Shown here piece after piece: positions 4,201 through 42,483 of a stretch of 64,000 nt of DNA (its first letter is position 1; every line of letters begins with the position of its first letter). This stretch comes from a phage. The position numbers were made by a program, and so were the translations under genes. The notes beneath the pieces are model-generated. The model was not told the origin of the DNA and did not search any database. It saw only the letters and a list, made by a program, of their open reading frames with translations. The stretch lies in sequence record NC_042307.1. The stretch is one strand, 5' to 3'.

Positions 4201-4445
4201 TATTTAATTCCCATGTAACGTTTGAGATATGTGATGAAGTCTTCTGTTGTATGTTTTAGGCTACCCTGAACCACAAACAACTTTAAAGCCTCACGCTGTA
4301 ATTTAAGAGCAGCTAACTCACCACGTAATTTTGTTAAATCTTCCGCTAGTTCCCTAGCTCTGCGCATAATAGCAAATGATACAAATGTTACAATAAATAA
4401 CATAACTGCTAAAATAATTACTATGATCTCCATATTAACATCCAA
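4200..4445 (-). CDS. small membrane protein (TM + coiled coil)
   Basis: Hydrophobic N-terminus 'IIVIILAVMLFIVTFVSFAI'. Confidence 0.4.
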   Translation of the reverse strand: MDVNMEIIVIILAVMLFIVTFVSFAIMRRARELAEDLTKLRGELAALKLQREALKLFVVQGSLKHTTEDFITYLKRYMGIK

Positions 4446-12763: not shown

Positions 12764-13443
12764 ATTGATCTACCTAAAGATCTCTGTTGTGGGGAACAGA
12801 GCTTTGCTAAATATTCCTTGAACTGTTCAGAATCAGCTGTATCTACCGGATTATCTTTCCAAGCAATACCAATGTACCCAGCATAGATATTTTTTAGATT
12901 GAAATATGGACAAGTGTATATGTAATTAAAAGTAACGTTTTTAAACGCAGGTATATTTAACCCCATATATTTATTTACTCTTACACTTAAATCCGATGCG
13001 TAGTTAAAGCCCTCTAAATGACGTCTGTATAATTCAGACGTTTTATTTACCGCTTTATCGGCCAAGTCAGCCCTATCTAATTGCGCATTACTTTCCCATG
13101 CAATAATATTGGAATAGTCATTGATAGCATCTGGTTTATACTTGACTACAAAAACAGCATCTGCACCCGTCTGAGAGAAGAGAACCATGCTCTTTTCCCT
13201 CGCCACATCAGGGAAGTTATCTATCCTCTGGGTTTGTAAATCCTGTAAAACTGCAGACGTGGAAAAAGTCTTTAAGAATGACATCACTTCACTAGTATTA
13301 CTAACAAATAAGAAAATAATGACAGCAACTAAGATAGTTAGCAGACGTTTAAGAAGCGATGCTGGGTCTTTCGCTTCTTGGAGCAGTACTGTTAATAATT
13401 GTAAGAACTTTTCCAATTTGTAACCTCCTCTAACCAGTACCAT
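12760..13443 (-). CDS. holin (T5-type); start uncertain
   Basis: TM 'LLTILVAVIIFLFV', 4-bp overlap with endolysin. Confidence 0.55.
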   Translation of the reverse strand: MVLVRGGYKLEKFLQLLTVLLQEAKDPASLLKRLLTILVAVIIFLFVSNTSEVMSFLKTFSTSAVLQDLQTQRIDNFPDVAREKSMVLFSQTGADAVFVVKYKPDAINDYSNIIAWESNAQLDRADLADKAVNKTSELYRRHLEGFNYASDLSVRVNKYMGLNIPAFKNVTFNYIYTCPYFNLKNIYAGYIGIAWKDNPVDTADSEQFKEYLAKLCSPQQRSLGRSI

Positions 13444-23093: not shown

Positions 23094-23612
23094 TTAGAAA
23101 TTTAGCTTCATGGCAAGAAAATTTTTCAAGTTTTCGGTAGACATCTCATCCACATCTATAGGAGAAACAAACCCATTTAATTGTTTAGCAAACTTTTCGC
23201 CAGCAGGATCATTATCCCCAACAGCTACCAATTTAAAAGGTAGTAATTTCAATTGCTTTAATAGCGGTTTTCCTGGAGAAGAACCCAACATTGCTAGAGC
23301 AGGATACCCAGCATTATGTAATGCTACAGCCTTAAATACAGATTCAGCAATTAATACTACTTTTTCATCCCCATTGAGAGTTTCTAGTCCCCATACACAC
23401 TGTGTAGTAGAATAAGTAAAATATCTAGCTTCAAAGGGGCACTTACCATGACCTTTTGGAGCAGAAGGATTATAAGTCTGATAGCCTCTCAACATTCCAG
23501 AGAAGTCATACAATGGGACTGTTAGCCATCCTTCTGGGCTTAACCAGCAGTGATATTTATCTGTATCAAACCCTCTAGATAAGAGATGTTCTGTTAGTTC
23601 ATCAATAGTCAT
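23094..23612 (-). CDS. Toprim-like domain protein
   Basis: 'VVLIAESVFKAVA...VAVGDNDPAGEKFA'; ATG 23612 with GAGAGG RBS. Confidence 0.4.
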   Translation of the reverse strand: MTIDELTEHLLSRGFDTDKYHCWLSPEGWLTVPLYDFSGMLRGYQTYNPSAPKGHGKCPFEARYFTYSTTQCVWGLETLNGDEKVVLIAESVFKAVALHNAGYPALAMLGSSPGKPLLKQLKLLPFKLVAVGDNDPAGEKFAKQLNGFVSPIDVDEMSTENLKNFLAMKLNF

Positions 23613-23831
23613 ACTAGATTCCTCTCTCAAATTTATAAATATATTATGCAGAGAATTTAGCATTCAAGCAATTGAATTTTTTAACTTTTTAGAGGAAAAT
23701 CACAGGATGCTTAAGGGTAGCAGGTAAGTGGGTAGACCCCAAAATTGTTATCCCCACTTGATTTTCAATGTGATATAGTGTAAAGTATTTGTCATAGCTG
23801 AGTGACCAAAGAGACACACTTATCCTCTACC

Positions 23832-23873
23832 TTAAAACAGAAAAGCCCTGCGCTCTCCAGGGAACACAGGGCT
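23832..23873 (-). terminator. Rho-independent terminator
   Basis: Stem AGCCCTG/CAGGGCT, 'tttctgtttt' in minus sense. Confidence 0.55.
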
Positions 23874-23897
23874 TACTTCGAATATTACGTGTGGGAA

Positions 23898-24879: not shown

Positions 24880-24954
24880 TGGCCGAGGTGACAGGATTCG
24901 AACCTGCATAAAGGAATTTAGAAGACTCCTGCCTCTCCCTTAGACTACACCCCG
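24880..24954 (-). tRNA. tRNA-Arg (anticodon UCU)
   Basis: Hand-folded; CCA encoded. Confidence 0.55.
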
Positions 24955-25608
24955 TTTAAGTATTTTTAAGAACTCTCGTAAAAACCCTTAAAAATACAGA
25001 CGATACCGGGAGAGTCATAAGTCTCACTCATTAAGTATTTCAAGACAAAATACAGTAACGTCTATTATTTTCCAGTTTAAGTCAAGGTGACTTAGTGGTT
25101 ATGTCCTGCGGTATACTGAGGACTCGGTTAAGTTAGGGTCATGACTCCCCACCTTTTTGCTGCTACTCAACAGGAGTTATCGCGAATTACCTGTGCTATT
25201 GTGCACCATTAGTGGCATCTCTCATGCCATCATTTCCCACTCTCATATTCACGCGGTCTGTTAGAATCGCACCTCCGATTTTCGATGCGAAGCTGGATGC
25301 CTAGTCTCAAGTTAAACGGGGTACACACTAGGCAGTGATCCCGAGTTCCGAGTTTGGTTGAGGCCGTCAGGTTTCCTCGTGGTTTAGCTGTTTCGATTCT
25401 AACCTAATACTGATCAGGCGGCGTACCTCCTGAACCGTCATAGTATGTACTCCAGCAGCGAATGCTTATCCGGTATAAGCCCCGAGTTATCTGATTCTTT
25501 CCGACCGCAGGATTCGAACCTGCATCTTCCACCAGTTACGGTTTGATATTACCGTTTATACTAGGACGGCAGTGTTATCACATAAGTCAGTTCGACACCC
25601 CACTATTA

Positions 25609-26091
25609 CTAACCAAAGTTAGTAAATTCTTTATGTAAGGATTCTCTTAATATCTTAGAGGCCTCGAAAGCCTCTTCCGCAGTTTTAAACCCTCTTTTAC
25701 TGTAATTTTTTCCTTCATGTCTTACTTGGTATCTCCAGGAAGAGCCTTCCCAACTTACTCCTTTGTACCCAGAAGTATTATTGCATTGTTGGTTTCTATT
25801 CGCATTATTTTGCGATCTAGAGGCGTCCCTTAGATTATTTTTCCTATTATTTCTAGGATTAGTATCCTTATGATCTACTTCTTCAGGCCTATATCCATAG
25901 TACATAATAAATAATAAGACATGCAGTTGATAGGTGTCGCCCTGAAATCCCACATCTGGATGTGATTTCTTATTATTGGCACAACACTCTTTCAAACCTT
26001 TCTTTGTTTTCCTATATAGTATCCCATTATCAGGATCAGCTACAAAATATTTTTCAAGTATTTCTTTAGTAGGGTATTCTTTCCTTTTCAT
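25609..26091 (-). CDS. HNH homing endonuclease (F-Tfl-like, adjacent to tRNA cluster)
   Basis: 'EEVDHKDTNPRNNRKNNLR'. Confidence 0.6.
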   Translation of the reverse strand: MKRKEYPTKEILEKYFVADPDNGILYRKTKKGLKECCANNKKSHPDVGFQGDTYQLHVLLFIMYYGYRPEEVDHKDTNPRNNRKNNLRDASRSQNNANRNQQCNNTSGYKGVSWEGSSWRYQVRHEGKNYSKRGFKTAEEAFEASKILRESLHKEFTNFG

Positions 26092-26097
26092 GAATAT

Positions 26098-26126
26098 ATT
26101 ATACAGAATTTTGAAGCGTTTAGCAA
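26098..26126 (-). promoter_or_regulatory. Sigma70-like early promoter (-35 TTGCTA, -10 TATAAT)
   Basis: Plus 'attata' 26098-26103, 'tagcaa' 26121-26126. Confidence 0.5.
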
Positions 26127-27278: not shown

Positions 27279-28100
27279 TTAAAATAGATCATATTCTAAT
27301 CTATTGGGATTTTCTCGGTATCCATAAGACGTAAGAGTACCCCTCATATACTCTGCGTCAACAGGATTAGATGTTACTAGAACCACTTTTAGTGGTCTTT
27401 GACCTAAAAATAGTATATGATCTAATAAGTCTTTTCCTTGTACCTCTGGATCTCCTAAATCTGAGTCCATAAATAAATAGGATCCTGTGAAACTAAATAT
27501 ATCTGATAGCTCCAGCGCACCTATAACTGTACGACAAATAATGGACATTTCAGGTAGATCTCTAACATCGTCTATTAGAATATTGGTCTGCTTCCCAATT
27601 TCTGCATTACATAAACCATTTACTAGTTTTTCTCTTTCCCCTTTAGCTTGTTCGAAAGTGGTGAAGCCAGGAGATACGAAAAACTTTCCACCTAATGTAA
27701 TGCTATACACAAAACCCTCGGGGAGGAGTTCTACACCTACGGTTTTATTAGTATTAATCCTATTTAACTTAAAATTTGTCTCTCTTAGATTAATAATTCT
27801 GTTATCCCACGGTATAGTATTTATATGGTCGATCATATAAGGCGGCTCTTCACCATAATGGAGCAACCACGCTATTCGGTGTCCATAAATAATTGTGGGT
27901 TTATTATCTAAGAGCAAACTAACTCTGATGTACCCATCAGAGTTCTTACTACATATTTCTCTCCCAGCATATAGGGTGTGCCAAGTTTTATTCTTGTATT
28001 TATTAGGCCTATAAAATAATTTACCGGTATAAGGATTATACTCTATAATTTCTCGAATATAATCTATATATGGTAGTATTTGTTTTTGTAATTTACCCAT
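27279..28100 (-). CDS. HNH-like N-terminal domain fused to unknown C-terminal domain
   Basis: 'GHRIAWLLHYGEEPPYMIDHINTIPWDNRIINLRE' then about 120 aa with 'ILIDDVRD...LFMDSDLG...VVLVTSNP'. Confidence 0.5.
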   Translation of the reverse strand: MGKLQKQILPYIDYIREIIEYNPYTGKLFYRPNKYKNKTWHTLYAGREICSKNSDGYIRVSLLLDNKPTIIYGHRIAWLLHYGEEPPYMIDHINTIPWDNRIINLRETNFKLNRINTNKTVGVELLPEGFVYSITLGGKFFVSPGFTTFEQAKGEREKLVNGLCNAEIGKQTNILIDDVRDLPEMSIICRTVIGALELSDIFSFTGSYLFMDSDLGDPEVQGKDLLDHILFLGQRPLKVVLVTSNPVDAEYMRGTLTSYGYRENPNRLEYDLF

Positions 28101-40670: not shown

Positions 40671-42483
40671 ATTAATTGAGAATTGCAAAGGTCTGCTCAC
40701 TCTAACTGCGGATAAGGACTTACAGCATAATAATGCTAATAAGCCTAGTGAGATGTTCCATACTCAAAGAGACTTATTGGCCGGAGAAATCAACAAATAT
40801 TTAGTATCGCAGGAATTACCCAAACATCTATTAGACGCCCATAATCTAGGTAAGATACACATTCATGATATGGATTACAGGGCGCAGGGGTACACTAACT
40901 GTTGCTTAGTAGACCTTGGTGGCATGCTGAAGAATGGTACTAAAATTGGTAATGCAAATATTGAAACTCCTAAATCCATAACTACTGCATGTGCAATCAC
41001 TGCTCAGATTATTGCCCAAGTATCTGGTGCTCAGTATGGTGGCACCTCTATTGATCGTATCGACGAGGTTCTAGCCCCGTATGTCAGAAAGTCTTACAAT
41101 AAACATCTGGGTCGTGGGCTACGTTGGCTCAAGGATGAAAGAAAAGCTGCTGTGTATGCTACTGAGCTTACTGAAAAAGAGTGTTATGATGCATTCCAAG
41201 CTCTAGAGTATGAAACTAATTCATTATTTAACTCTAATGGGCAGACCCCTTTTGTTACGCTTGGCTTTGGATTAGGTCAGGAGTGGGAGGAAAGGATGAT
41301 TCAGAAAGCCATCCTCCAAAATCGTATTAAAGGTTTAGGTGCTGCTGAGTCAACCCCTATCTTCCCTAAACTAGTATTCTCAGTTAAAGAAGGGTTAAAT
41401 AAAAATCCAGGCGATCCTAACTACGATATAAAACAGCTAGCACTTGAGTGTTCTGCTACCCGTATGTACCCAGACTATTTAAGCTATGAGAAAGTTGTAG
41501 CTGTTACTGGTGATTTTAAAGCCCCTATGGGTTGTCGTAGCTTTTTATCTGCTATCCCCTCCGGAGAAATTGCAGGGCGCAATAATTTAGGTGTAGTGTC
41601 TATTAATCTACCTATGGTTGCTGCTGAGGCAGATGGGGTTTTTGAAGATTTCTGGGATATTCTGGACAAATATGTGGATGAGGCTTTTGAAGCTCATGAT
41701 TTTTTCTTGGATAGACTTAAGAAAGTGAAGGCTAAACAAGCCCCTATTCTTTATATGCACGGTGGTTTTGGTGTGCGTTTAGATGGGGAAGAGTATGTAT
41801 GGCCTATTTTTGAGGGTAGATCTTCTGTATCTCTTGGATACATTGGGGTCTATGAGATGTGCCAAATAATGTTTAGTCTACCACAAACCCATAGGGATTG
41901 TATTGAATTTACAGAAGAAGTTCTTACTCACCTAAAAAATCGTTGCGAAGTTAAAGCTAATGAGACTAATCTTGGATTTAGCTTATACGCTACCCCTAGT
42001 GAGTCTCTATGTAATCGTTTTAATAAATTACTAGAACGTAGATTCCCAGAGTATTCTTGGTTAACAGACAAAGGCTATCTTACTAATAGTCACCATTTGG
42101 ACGTAAGAGAGAAGGTAGCCCCAGATACTAAATTTGAGTACGAAGCTCATTTTACCAAAATAGCTAATGGTGGTAATATATCGTTTGTGGAATTACCACA
42201 AATGAAAAAATTCCATAAAGCTCTTGAATACGTAGTAGATAAGGGACTAGAGTGTAGCCATTATATCGGTGTTAATATACCGATTGACGAGTGTTTCAAC
42301 TGTGGATATATGGGTGAATCTATTGCCTCTGAGCGTGGGTTTGTATGTCCAAGTTGTGGGTCTGAAGAAATAGAGGTTACACGTAGGGTTTGCGGGTACC
42401 TGGGATCCCCGGGCAGTAGGCCTTTCAATTCTGGGAAACAAAAAGAAGTGCTTGGTAGAGTAAAACACTTAAATCTTAAGTAA
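40657..42483 (+). CDS. nrdD: anaerobic ribonucleoside-triphosphate reductase NrdD
   Basis: Glycyl radical 'RRVCGYLG', zinc site 'CFNCG...CPSCG'. Confidence 0.8.
   Translation: MTENELIENCKGLLTLTADKDLQHNNANKPSEMFHTQRDLLAGEINKYLVSQELPKHLLDAHNLGKIHIHDMDYRAQGYTNCCLVDLGGMLKNGTKIGNANIETPKSITTACAITAQIIAQVSGAQYGGTSIDRIDEVLAPYVRKSYNKHLGRGLRWLKDERKAAVYATELTEKECYDAFQALEYETNSLFNSNGQTPFVTLGFGLGQEWEERMIQKAILQNRIKGLGAAESTPIFPKLVFSVKEGLNKNPGDPNYDIKQLALECSATRMYPDYLSYEKVVAVTGDFKAPMGCRSFLSAIPSGEIAGRNNLGVVSINLPMVAAEADGVFEDFWDILDKYVDEAFEAHDFFLDRLKKVKAKQAPILYMHGGFGVRLDGEEYVWPIFEGRSSVSLGYIGVYEMCQIMFSLPQTHRDCIEFTEEVLTHLKNRCEVKANETNLGFSLYATPSESLCNRFNKLLERRFPEYSWLTDKGYLTNSHHLDVREKVAPDTKFEYEAHFTKIANGGNISFVELPQMKKFHKALEYVVDKGLECSHYIGVNIPIDECFNCGYMGESIASERGFVCPSCGSEEIEVTRRVCGYLGSPGSRPFNSGKQKEVLGRVKHLNLK

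Follow-up and report, generated by a model that had tools for sequence, protein, structure and literature searches.

RNAX of T5-like phages: a multi-domain structured RNA with an embedded tRNA-like domain and possible self-association

The RNAX locus and its relatives

In this study, we analyzed a stretch of 64,000 nucleotides (nt) of phage DNA from sequence record NC_042307.1 (the whole stretch is called the window below), and within it the block at positions 24955-25608, which corresponds to the RNA gene rnaX (RNAX). BLAST placed the window as a T5-like phage (Demerecviridae) and matched the block to 525 phage records, where it falls on the features named "rnaX: RNAX" in NC_005859, AJ604530 and NC_027356. 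The block is an ortholog of rnaX/RNAX, with which it agrees in homology, synteny and strand. Its core, defined by rnaX homology and covariation, covers 24955-25607 on the minus strand (653 nt), and sense positions in it are given as s = 25608 minus the window coordinate. It is bordered by a gene for tRNA-Arg(UCU) with an encoded CCA (24880-24954, minus strand), whose 5' end marks the 3' limit of RNAX as annotated, and by a 483-nt open reading frame (ORF) for an HNH homing endonuclease of 160 amino acids (aa) (25609-26091, minus strand; Pfam HNH_3, E=1.2e-11). Base-pair covariation among its relatives shows that RNAX is a conserved, non-coding, strand-specific and multi-domain structured RNA with an embedded tRNA-like domain.

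A first-pass annotation, made from the letters of the window alone, had described the block as ORF-free, richer in GC than its surroundings and flanked by tRNA-Arg and an HNH gene, and all of this was recovered. The longest ORF in 24955-25608 is only 42 aa on either strand, the GC fraction is 0.49-0.50 in 300-nt windows at 25100-25549 vs 0.31-0.38, or about 36%, in the flanks, and the neighbors are the tRNA-Arg(tct) gene and the HNH_3 match given above. For comparison, 49 distinct homologs were collected, and 27 representatives with less than 97.5% identity were kept. A coding reading of the block was rejected because the largest ORFs in these 27 representatives differ in strand, position and length, and none is conserved. 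The same annotation had suggested structured non-coding RNA, which agrees with the conservation in 525 phage records and the strong base-pair covariation. Its expectation of one or several small RNAs has to be replaced, as the whole 653-nt block is the core of one large RNA.

The T5 record AY543070 annotates rnaX as a misc_RNA at 40848-41566 on the minus strand, from promoter P16-17 to the exact start of tRNA-Arg, and BF23 (AJ604530, 13651-14434) and DT57C carry the same rnaX annotation, described as a "stable RNA with unknown functions". The annotated length is 719 nt in T5 and 784 nt in BF23; RNAX measures about 650 nt in the window and 720-900 nt in relatives. Identity of the window to rnaX of T5, BF23 and DT57C is 84-87% over the 5' 140 nt and 95-99% over the 3' 290 nt, and strand, promoter P16-17, the position just 5' of tRNA-Arg(UCU) and the location downstream of a YqeY-like gene are all shared. 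The window version is mosaic: over its last ~390 nt, which take in tRNA-Arg, it matches Tequintavirus at 97-99% identity, over its first 140 nt the identity is about 85%, and the middle third is 88-90% identical to Stitch and oselot (Epseptimavirus). It differs from T5 rnaX in the middle third (s188-409), which is the Epseptimavirus version, and further in the HNH ORF, which replaces a 5' module between promoter and core, and in an insertion of ~87 nt that is present in T5 and flanked by duplicated AGUCACCUUGAC-UAAACUGGAA. At the locus level, this ~87-nt insertion was seen in L003 (T5; 12849-13085) and in the metagenome contig L097 (7352-7588), flanked by a direct duplication of AGTCACCTTGAC-TAAACTGGAA, and the duplicated motif looks as if it were a point of recombination or insertion.

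RNAX is known by name only, because no paper on it was found in the searchable literature on RNAX/rnaX, T5 stable RNAs and T5 RNA sequencing, and Rfam 15 holds no family for it (gathering and E-value modes, window and eight relatives). The annotation of RNAX dates from 2004; the novelty seems to lie in its architecture and in the hint of self-association. Beyond T5-like phages, no RNAX was found in the SPFH-gene neighborhoods of other phage families (L030-L046), and motif scans of the IMG/VR, metagenome and GTDB collections with AGTCACCNTGACTNNAACTGGA returned mostly the same T5-like phages; three GTDB motif matches were GC-rich coding sequence. Unrelated phage-like contigs (L082/L101, L089/L095/L105, L090, L096 and L102) also have the 22-nt RNAX motif AGTCACCYTGACTWWAACTGGA, in AT-rich stretches that are non-coding; between L089/L095 and L105 the motif marks the start of a conserved block. 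These extra contigs were matched neither by the covariance model of the RNAX 5' module (R1) nor by the model of its central and 3' hairpins (R2), and their count is near chance.

The core belongs to a longer transcription unit. A consensus scan found a strong sigma-70-type promoter, TTGCTA-17-TATAAT, at 26098-26126 on the minus strand (10/12 matches), a homolog of P16-17; its sequence also stands directly upstream of RNAX in T5 and Stitch, and P16-17 drives rnaX in T5 and BF23. An intrinsic-terminator-like hairpin (23843-23874, minus strand) follows the SPFH gene and ends the unit; from the promoter to the end of that gene, no other site of this kind was found. The transcript would thus carry, in order, the HNH ORF, the RNAX core, tRNA-Arg and the SPFH ORF. 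Relatives without the HNH gene have an extra RNA module between promoter and core, which is ~215 nt long in Stitch, has shrunk to a 40-nt hairpin (AAAUUAGAGAG-UAAU-UCUUCUCUAAUUU) in T5, and has related counterparts in AAS21, DU_PP_V and PR1. The motif of this upstream module, CAGCGGGCWGACTAYGCTGAG, is absent from the window, where the HNH ORF occupies exactly its place; mar003J3, rokbiter, KFSSM and RA40 have the same layout.

Some observations concern the genes inserted around RNAX. The ATG of the HNH ORF (26091) lies at about +1 of the promoter, ~7 nt past the -10 box, and no Shine-Dalgarno sequence precedes it; therefore, the HNH mRNA may be leaderless. Elsewhere in the window, a 273-aa ORF (27279-28100, minus strand) joins HNH_3 to a C-terminal cREC_REC (cyclic-phosphate processing receiver, PF20274), a fusion that is unusual for a homing-endonuclease-like gene. 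On the other side of RNAX, a 169-aa ORF with no Pfam match stands between the RNAX 3' hairpin and tRNA-Arg in L002 (1609-2118) and at the same place in L048, L049, L051, L055 and L057 (Epseptimavirus), and it may be another mobile gene targeting the RNAX/tRNA-Arg junction.

Base-pair covariation and domain architecture

Covariation was followed with two covariance models. R1 describes the 5' module; it was built from a MAFFT alignment, and its model alignment holds 31 sequences. R2 describes five hairpins (P_a, P_b, P_d, P_e and the AGUCA hairpin), with 32 sequences aligned. In ~30 non-redundant relatives, 58 of the 65 modeled base pairs co-vary or are invariant. On the plain MAFFT alignment, RNAalifold paired a leader (s18-31) with a trailer (s113-127) around a cloverleaf and placed a hairpin next to it. 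With the D-stem, acceptor and "anticodon"-stem pairs added, this alignment, which was not fitted to a model, had 92.7% of cells paired, and 16 pairs changed on both sides vs 9.9±1.6 in shuffles (reached in 0/500) and at most 3 in slid controls. In the R1 alignment of the 5' module, 93.9% of cells were paired and 22/36 pairs changed on both sides; the controls gave 11.9±1.7 in shuffles (0/500 reached 22) and no more than 5 when slid. The central and 3' module (R2) had 90.9% of cells paired and both-side changes at 22/29 pairs (shuffles 14.3±1.7, slid at most 12). On the anchored full-length alignment, RNAalifold gave 91 pairs outside the 5' module, 31 of which changed on both sides vs 24.1±1.8 shuffled and 8-17 slid.

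The strand is marked by many G.U states, with UG in 12 and 17 sequences at two pairs, which would give A.C mismatches on the opposite strand. R1 also found the 5' module in more distant phages, namely Pantoea AAS21 (162 bits), Pectobacterium DU_PP_V (106 bits) and Providencia PR1 (60 bits). It found nothing at the loci of other phage families, and in the T5 tRNA region it returned no further RNAX-type module, only true tRNAs at 26 bits or less.

The 5' module is organized around a 12-bp enclosing helix, predicted by RNAalifold, in which the leader strand (25577-25590, minus strand) pairs with a trailer strand (25481-25495, minus strand) that carries the motif GAUAAC; both-side changes affect 8 of its 12 pairs, with 99.4% of cells paired. 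The helix is followed by the hairpin GCUUAU-ACCGG-AUAAGC (25464-25480, minus strand; s128-144), with both-side changes at 3/5 pairs and 100% of cells paired. Enclosed by the helix is the tRNA-like cloverleaf (25499-25570, minus strand). In the window, its 7-bp acceptor stem, D arm and T arm are all present and co-varying, and it retains the D-loop GG and the T-loop, which form the elbow of a tRNA. The D stem changes from GUAU/AUAU to AGUU/GACU or GGCU/AGCC, and the T stem from GCAGG to GUAGG or GUGGG, with the 3' strand matching each time. In the acceptor stem, position 5:68 is mostly U.U, with A-U in T5 and U-A in BF23, and 4:69 and 7:66 are both swapped in DU_PP_V. Two oppositions in this stem are non-canonical and have been conserved rather than repaired, G.A or G.U at 1:72 (25570/25500) and U.U at 5:68 (25566/25504), the latter in 23 of 29 sequences. 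Both persist in DU_PP_V, where neighboring pairs are swapped.

The first-pass annotation had pointed to a tRNA T arm on the minus strand, no encoded CCA and no canonical anticodon arm. The T arm (GCAGGTTCGAATCCTGC) is indeed on that strand, at 25507-25523 instead of about 25503-25521, an offset of 2-4 nt. The acceptor 3' strand reads GGTCGGA-AAGAA, so that CCA is not encoded, unlike in the adjoining tRNA-Arg, and the flanks of the element pair together in the co-varying helix. At the "anticodon" position, the window has a 3-bp stem and a 6-nt loop, GUAACU. The annotation had proposed a check with ARAGORN and Rfam. ARAGORN called no tRNA or tmRNA within the block, and the Rfam tRNA model gave a borderline match to 25499-25570 (minus strand; 29.3 bits, with the gathering score at 29) that did not align the anticodon arm. 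The annotation had also counted the lack of any covariance-model match, together with that of a transcript, as evidence against a structured RNA; such a result would be weakly informative here because Rfam has no RNAX model. Its idea that the T arm belongs to a tRNA-like, non-decoding element agrees with these data, but the cloverleaf is only one domain of RNAX.

In orthologs, the Rfam tRNA scores are 27-40 bits and the assigned identities conflict. GenBank gives tRNA-Sec(tca) or tRNA-OTHER, and ARAGORN gives Leu(tag) in DU_PP_V and Ser(aga) in AAS21. These conflicts arise because the "anticodon arm" is merely a variable hairpin, mostly with a 3-4-bp stem and a 6-nt loop, with a tetraloop in DU_PP_V and a long two-part arm with an extra hairpin in Klebsiella phages. 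Assignment of the element to the tRNA class was rejected on the anticodon arm, which lacks a 5-bp stem, a 7-nt loop and a conserved anticodon. A tmRNA was likewise rejected, since ARAGORN called none, no Rfam tmRNA match was obtained, and the tRNA-like unit is contiguous, not split. In L027 (1780-1825), L043 (2108-2153) and L111 (PR1; 4300-4330), the cloverleaf is exactly exchanged for a short unrelated hairpin. The helix around it and the following hairpin are retained, as if one domain had been swapped for another at the end of a conserved helix. As judged from these comparisons, the tRNA look-alike is a maintained but exchangeable cap, not a decoding tRNA.

Downstream of the 5' module, all on the minus strand, conserved motifs and hairpins alternate. 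The single-stranded motif UAAACCACG (25378-25386) is collinear in all variants. It is followed by the motif AUCGAAAAUCGGAGG (25272-25286), which is flanked by a co-varying stem UCGCA/UGCGA, and by the conserved AGUGGGAAA (25233-25241). In hairpin P_a (UGGCAU-GAGAG-AUGCCA, 25213-25229), 6/6 pairs change on both sides. Hairpin P_b (ACAGG-[UAAU UCGCGA UAACU]-CCUGU, 25170-25194) has a co-varying stem and the palindrome UCGCGA in its loop (25180-25185). Hairpin P_d (25130-25154) contains the invariant GGAGUCAUGACC, with the palindrome GUCAUGAC at 25138-25145, and 4/4 pairs of its outer stem co-vary. Hairpin P_e (GUCCU-...-AGGAC, 25103-25123; 5/5 pairs with changes on both sides, 96.8% of cells paired) is followed by motif AUAACCAC.

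Towards the 3' end, the hairpin AAGUCA-CCU-UGACUU (25079-25093) is followed by motif UAAACUGGA, and its closing pair is A-U in 20 sequences and U-A in 8. On the anchored full-length alignment, RNAalifold pairs CCACUA (25093-25098), beside AUAACCAC, with UAGUGG at the 5' end (25600-25605). We tentatively regard this as a long-range closing helix, for which compensation is partial and was noted by inspection in L057 and the Klebsiella phages. A 3' junction domain (24999-25078) then follows, with an outer stem GAUA.../...UAUC, inner helices and a conserved loop CUUAAU; compensatory stems in it (CGGAAGG/CCUACCG, CAGUAG/CUACUG and UACUG/CGGUA) were identified by eye only. Directly 5' of tRNA-Arg stands a terminal hairpin of 16-18 bp (24959-24998), the most conserved stretch of the family. 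Between Pectobacterium DU_PP_V and the E. coli, Salmonella and Klebsiella phages it is 92-100% identical, vs only ~70% for the neighboring sequence. As it is conserved in sequence and not just in pairing, it may be a recognition site for a protein or nuclease. Across the molecule, the invariant motifs keep the same order in all variants, UAAACCACG, (AUCGAAAA)UCGGAGG, AGUGGGAAA, GAUAAC, GGAGUCAUGACC, AUAACCAC, AGUCACCUUGACU-UAAACUGGA and GGUAUCUUUAAG, and the segments between them vary in length and sequence yet still form helices.

Self-complementary loops and comparison with other RNAs

The loop of P_b holds a palindrome of 6-8 nt that changes by lineage and stays palindromic (DNA versions TCGCGA, CGCGCG, CTCGAG, CCGCGG, TCCGCGGA and GTGCGCAC). 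In RNA form, it reads UCGCGA in the window, CGCGCG in T5, CUCGAG in a third lineage, CCGCGG in a fourth, GUGCGCAC in RA40 and UCCGCGGA in Klebsiella phages. These palindromes sit on different compensated stems: ACAGG/CCUGU, CUAGGAAG/CUUCCUAG, CUUAG/CUAAG, AUAUGC/GCAUAU and GUAUACAGCU/AGCUCGUAUAC. A palindrome is unable to pair inside its own loop, and an intramolecular partner elsewhere was sought; no variant has a second copy of the palindrome, and no partner is consistent across lineages. The CGCG of a conserved ACCGCGU could give 4 bp with the P_b loop in some variants, not with the CTCGAG type, and a 7-bp match of the loop to a UGCGCAC loop occurs in L055 only. A pairing by RNAalifold of UCGCGAU with AUGACC of the invariant motif was rejected as unsupported, since the first partner varies and the second does not. 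The second self-complementary loop is that of P_d, where GGAGUCAUGACC with its 8-nt palindrome GUCAUGAC is invariant in all 32 R2-aligned sequences, and also in DU_PP_V and AAS21.

For OLE and GOLLD, Kretsch et al. took the exchange of one loop palindrome for another as an evolutionary sign of the symmetric intermolecular kissing loops that their cryo-EM (cryo-electron microscopy) structures show (PMC12286853). RNAX probably pairs with its own copies, because two hairpin loops show self-complementary sequences (the UCGCGA type and GUCAUGAC). By analogy with those RNAs, the loops are suggestive, though not conclusive, of self-association of RNAX into a dimer or larger assembly through symmetric kissing loops.

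GOLLD and ROOL are phage-encoded RNAs of ~600-800 nt or more, often beside tRNA islands, with no function assigned; ROOL is reported to be non-essential, GOLLD sometimes has covalently linked tRNAs, and the homo-oligomers of both rest on symmetric kissing loops inferred from co-varying palindromes (PMC12286853). RNAX shares with them the tRNA-gene context, size class, dispensability, an embedded tRNA-like unit and a co-varying palindromic loop. In contrast, no GOLLD or ROOL covariance model matched RNAX at E<=10 (window) or E<=5 (eight relatives), the motifs differ, the hosts of RNAX phages are Enterobacterales, and the assembly of RNAX is a prediction. Overall, the Rfam searches of the window and eight relatives returned only tRNA matches, and no GOLLD, ROOL, tmRNA, RNase P, group I intron, Y-RNA-like or riboswitch match was obtained. 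Therefore, RNAX is not a member of GOLLD, ROOL or YrlA, none of whose covariance models match.

A similar arrangement is found in YrlA and in the mascRNA of MALAT1, in which a tRNA-like module with T arm, D arm and acceptor and no functional anticodon arm ends a helix of flanking sequences, as in RNAX. Salmonella, a host of many T5-like phages, has an Rsr/YrlA system. RNAX differs from YrlA in having no Rfam match to it, in being 5-8 times larger, in that no Ro-binding helix was identified, and in that the tRNA-like unit is dispensable in some variants. Within T5 itself, RNAI, RNAIII, RNAIV, RNA1, RNA2 and RNA2H are unassigned stable RNAs of the phage tRNA cluster that, as predicted for RNAX, are co-transcribed with tRNAs and matured from tRNA-cluster transcripts; they differ from RNAX in size (70-170 nt). 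Species 1 and 2 RNAs of T4 are comparable stable RNAs of a phage tRNA cluster, in the 70-170 nt class and with function unassigned.

Alternative readings and a possible role in infection

Four other explanations of the block were considered. The best placed of them, although we hold it to be improbable, is that RNAX is a processing platform or spacer for tRNA-Arg, with structures that only direct cleavage by RNase P, E or III or stabilize tRNA-Arg or neighboring mRNAs. RNAX does abut tRNA-Arg, its annotated 3' end being the tRNA 5' end, a nuclease might cut at the almost unchanging 16-18-bp hairpin that precedes the tRNA, and the tRNA-like element could conceivably be an RNase P site parting the HNH mRNA from the downstream RNA. 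However, a processing signal would need far less than RNAX offers, which in some 650 nt has at least 11 co-varying helices and seven invariant motifs whose order is fixed. The leader on the 5' side of the tRNA-like element also pairs and is conserved in its own right. Moreover, RNAX is conserved even where it is parted from tRNA-Arg, by an ORF in oselot, rokbiter, KFSSM and RA40 and by ~0.5 kb with annotated small ORFs in Klebsiella phages. A DNA-level origin of the conservation, as a homing-endonuclease target, recombination hotspot or set of palindromic protein sites, has a smaller chance. It would fit the HNH or other ORFs inserted on either side of RNAX in different phages, the mosaic block and the palindromes, but G.U-tolerant, strand-specific compensatory changes are a signature of RNA, a site for a dimeric protein would keep its sequence and not swap palindromes, and the region is driven by a promoter and carries an RNA annotation in T5.

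The remaining two explanations start from tRNAs. That the block consists of decayed tRNA genes, conserved only through the close kinship of T5-like phages, is as improbable as the DNA-level explanation. The tRNA cluster, the tRNA-like GC content, the one degenerate tRNA match and the several "tRNA-like" RNAs annotated in T5 invite this view; only one tRNA-like unit is present even at E<=10, though, helices stay paired through both-side changes across genera, and invariant motifs persist where the flanking identity is ~70%. Least probable of all, by a little, is that 25499-25570 is a functional unusual tRNA (suppressor or Sec-like) and the rest its leader and trailer, for which the GenBank labels tRNA-Sec(tca) and tRNA-OTHER, the Leu(tag) and Ser(aga) calls of ARAGORN and the 27-40 bits of the orthologs in Rfam might be cited. 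Against it, the "anticodon" differs in every lineage, the shape of the arm varies, CCA is lacking, the mismatches G1.A72 and U5.U68 are conserved, the leader-trailer pairing would bury the ends, and the domain is absent in L027, L043 and PR1. All four explanations are disfavored because covariation is so extensive, the "anticodon" is not conserved and one palindrome is swapped for another.

Considering all the above results, the best explanation as a whole is that the block is the core of rnaX, a large structured RNA that probably associates with itself and is proposed to have an accessory role in infection, and we give this reading a probability of roughly 0.7. Several points weigh against it. 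Single-sequence folding energies are unremarkable (z = -1.1 sense, -2.4 antisense). The alignments A4 and A5 were fitted to models and thus lean to the modeled structure, and the sequences are related, so the counts from shuffles are not probabilities. The "stable RNA" label is a GenBank annotation, for which no experimental source was traced. As to self-association, only CGCG is left of the palindrome in L024 and AAS21, none was found in DU_PP_V, and a palindrome of at least 6 nt arises in 10-29% of shuffles of a single loop. Furthermore, tRNA mimicry is not the core function, because L027, L043 and PR1 have a plain hairpin in place of the cloverleaf.

The accessory role is proposed because RNAX is dispensable and sits in a tRNA-rich, anti-defense region. 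The deposited genome of the viable T5 st0 deletion mutant (AY692264) is without the stretch from within T5.068 to within T5.081, which takes in RNAX, tRNA-Arg, the SPFH gene and the Toprim gene; since this viable phage lacks the RNAX stretch, RNAX is dispensable for laboratory growth, and hence accessory. Azam et al. showed that T5 and SP15 survive comparable spontaneous deletions, in which ~8 kb of their "tRNA-rich region" or "anti-defence island" is lost, but infect hosts carrying retrons less well, and that T5n also performs worse on AVAST 2; the retron effects were traced to tRNA-Tyr and to Rad, a 189-aa Toprim protein encoded by ORF75 of SP15 (10.1101/2023.03.15.532788; PMC11555353). RNAX lies ~3 kb from ORF75 in SP15. 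The window has a 189-aa Toprim ORF at 23094-23663 (minus strand), of the same length as and syntenic with SP15 ORF75 (E0157_075, Rad), and is without the two plus-strand ORFs that part the Toprim ORF from the SPFH gene in T5 and SP15. With this syntenic ORF, and ORF75 of SP15, nearby, RNAX adjoins an accessory region of tRNAs and counter-defense genes.

Based on these results and speculation, a plausible course of events can be proposed. The 3' end of RNAX would be released by the RNase P cut at the 5' end of tRNA-Arg, and one or two symmetric kissing loops would then join RNAX molecules to one another. More speculatively, the self-associated RNAX might serve as a scaffold or decoy that displays the tRNA-like elbow to a host factor binding or targeting tRNA, as part of the means by which the phage counters defense and supports translation. 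A further step, which we consider possible but rather doubtful, is that RNAX represents a third, sequence-unrelated class of giant "ornate" phage RNA of tRNA islands beside GOLLD and ROOL, which would self-assemble through the kissing loops of the UCGCGA-type palindrome and GUCAUGAC, display the elbow and act as an accessory factor in host range or anti-defense, for example as a decoy or scaffold for factors binding or cleaving tRNA.

Several consequences would follow for phage biology. At present, many genomes label RNAX wrongly, as tRNA-Sec, tRNA-OTHER or short hypothetical proteins, and a covariance model would put this right. The giant phage RNAs GOLLD and ROOL are abundant, lie beside tRNA genes and form RNA-only cages; their role is unsolved, and their hosts are awkward to study. 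RNAX has the same context and a similar signal for self-association in T5 and in hundreds of phages of E. coli, Salmonella and Klebsiella, which are editable and for which defense libraries and deletion mutants of the region exist. If the "ornate" class assignment is true, RNAX would be the first such RNA in a classical, genetically tractable coliphage (T5). Therefore, if RNAX self-assembles or counters tRNA-directed defense, the purpose of giant phage RNAs would become directly testable.

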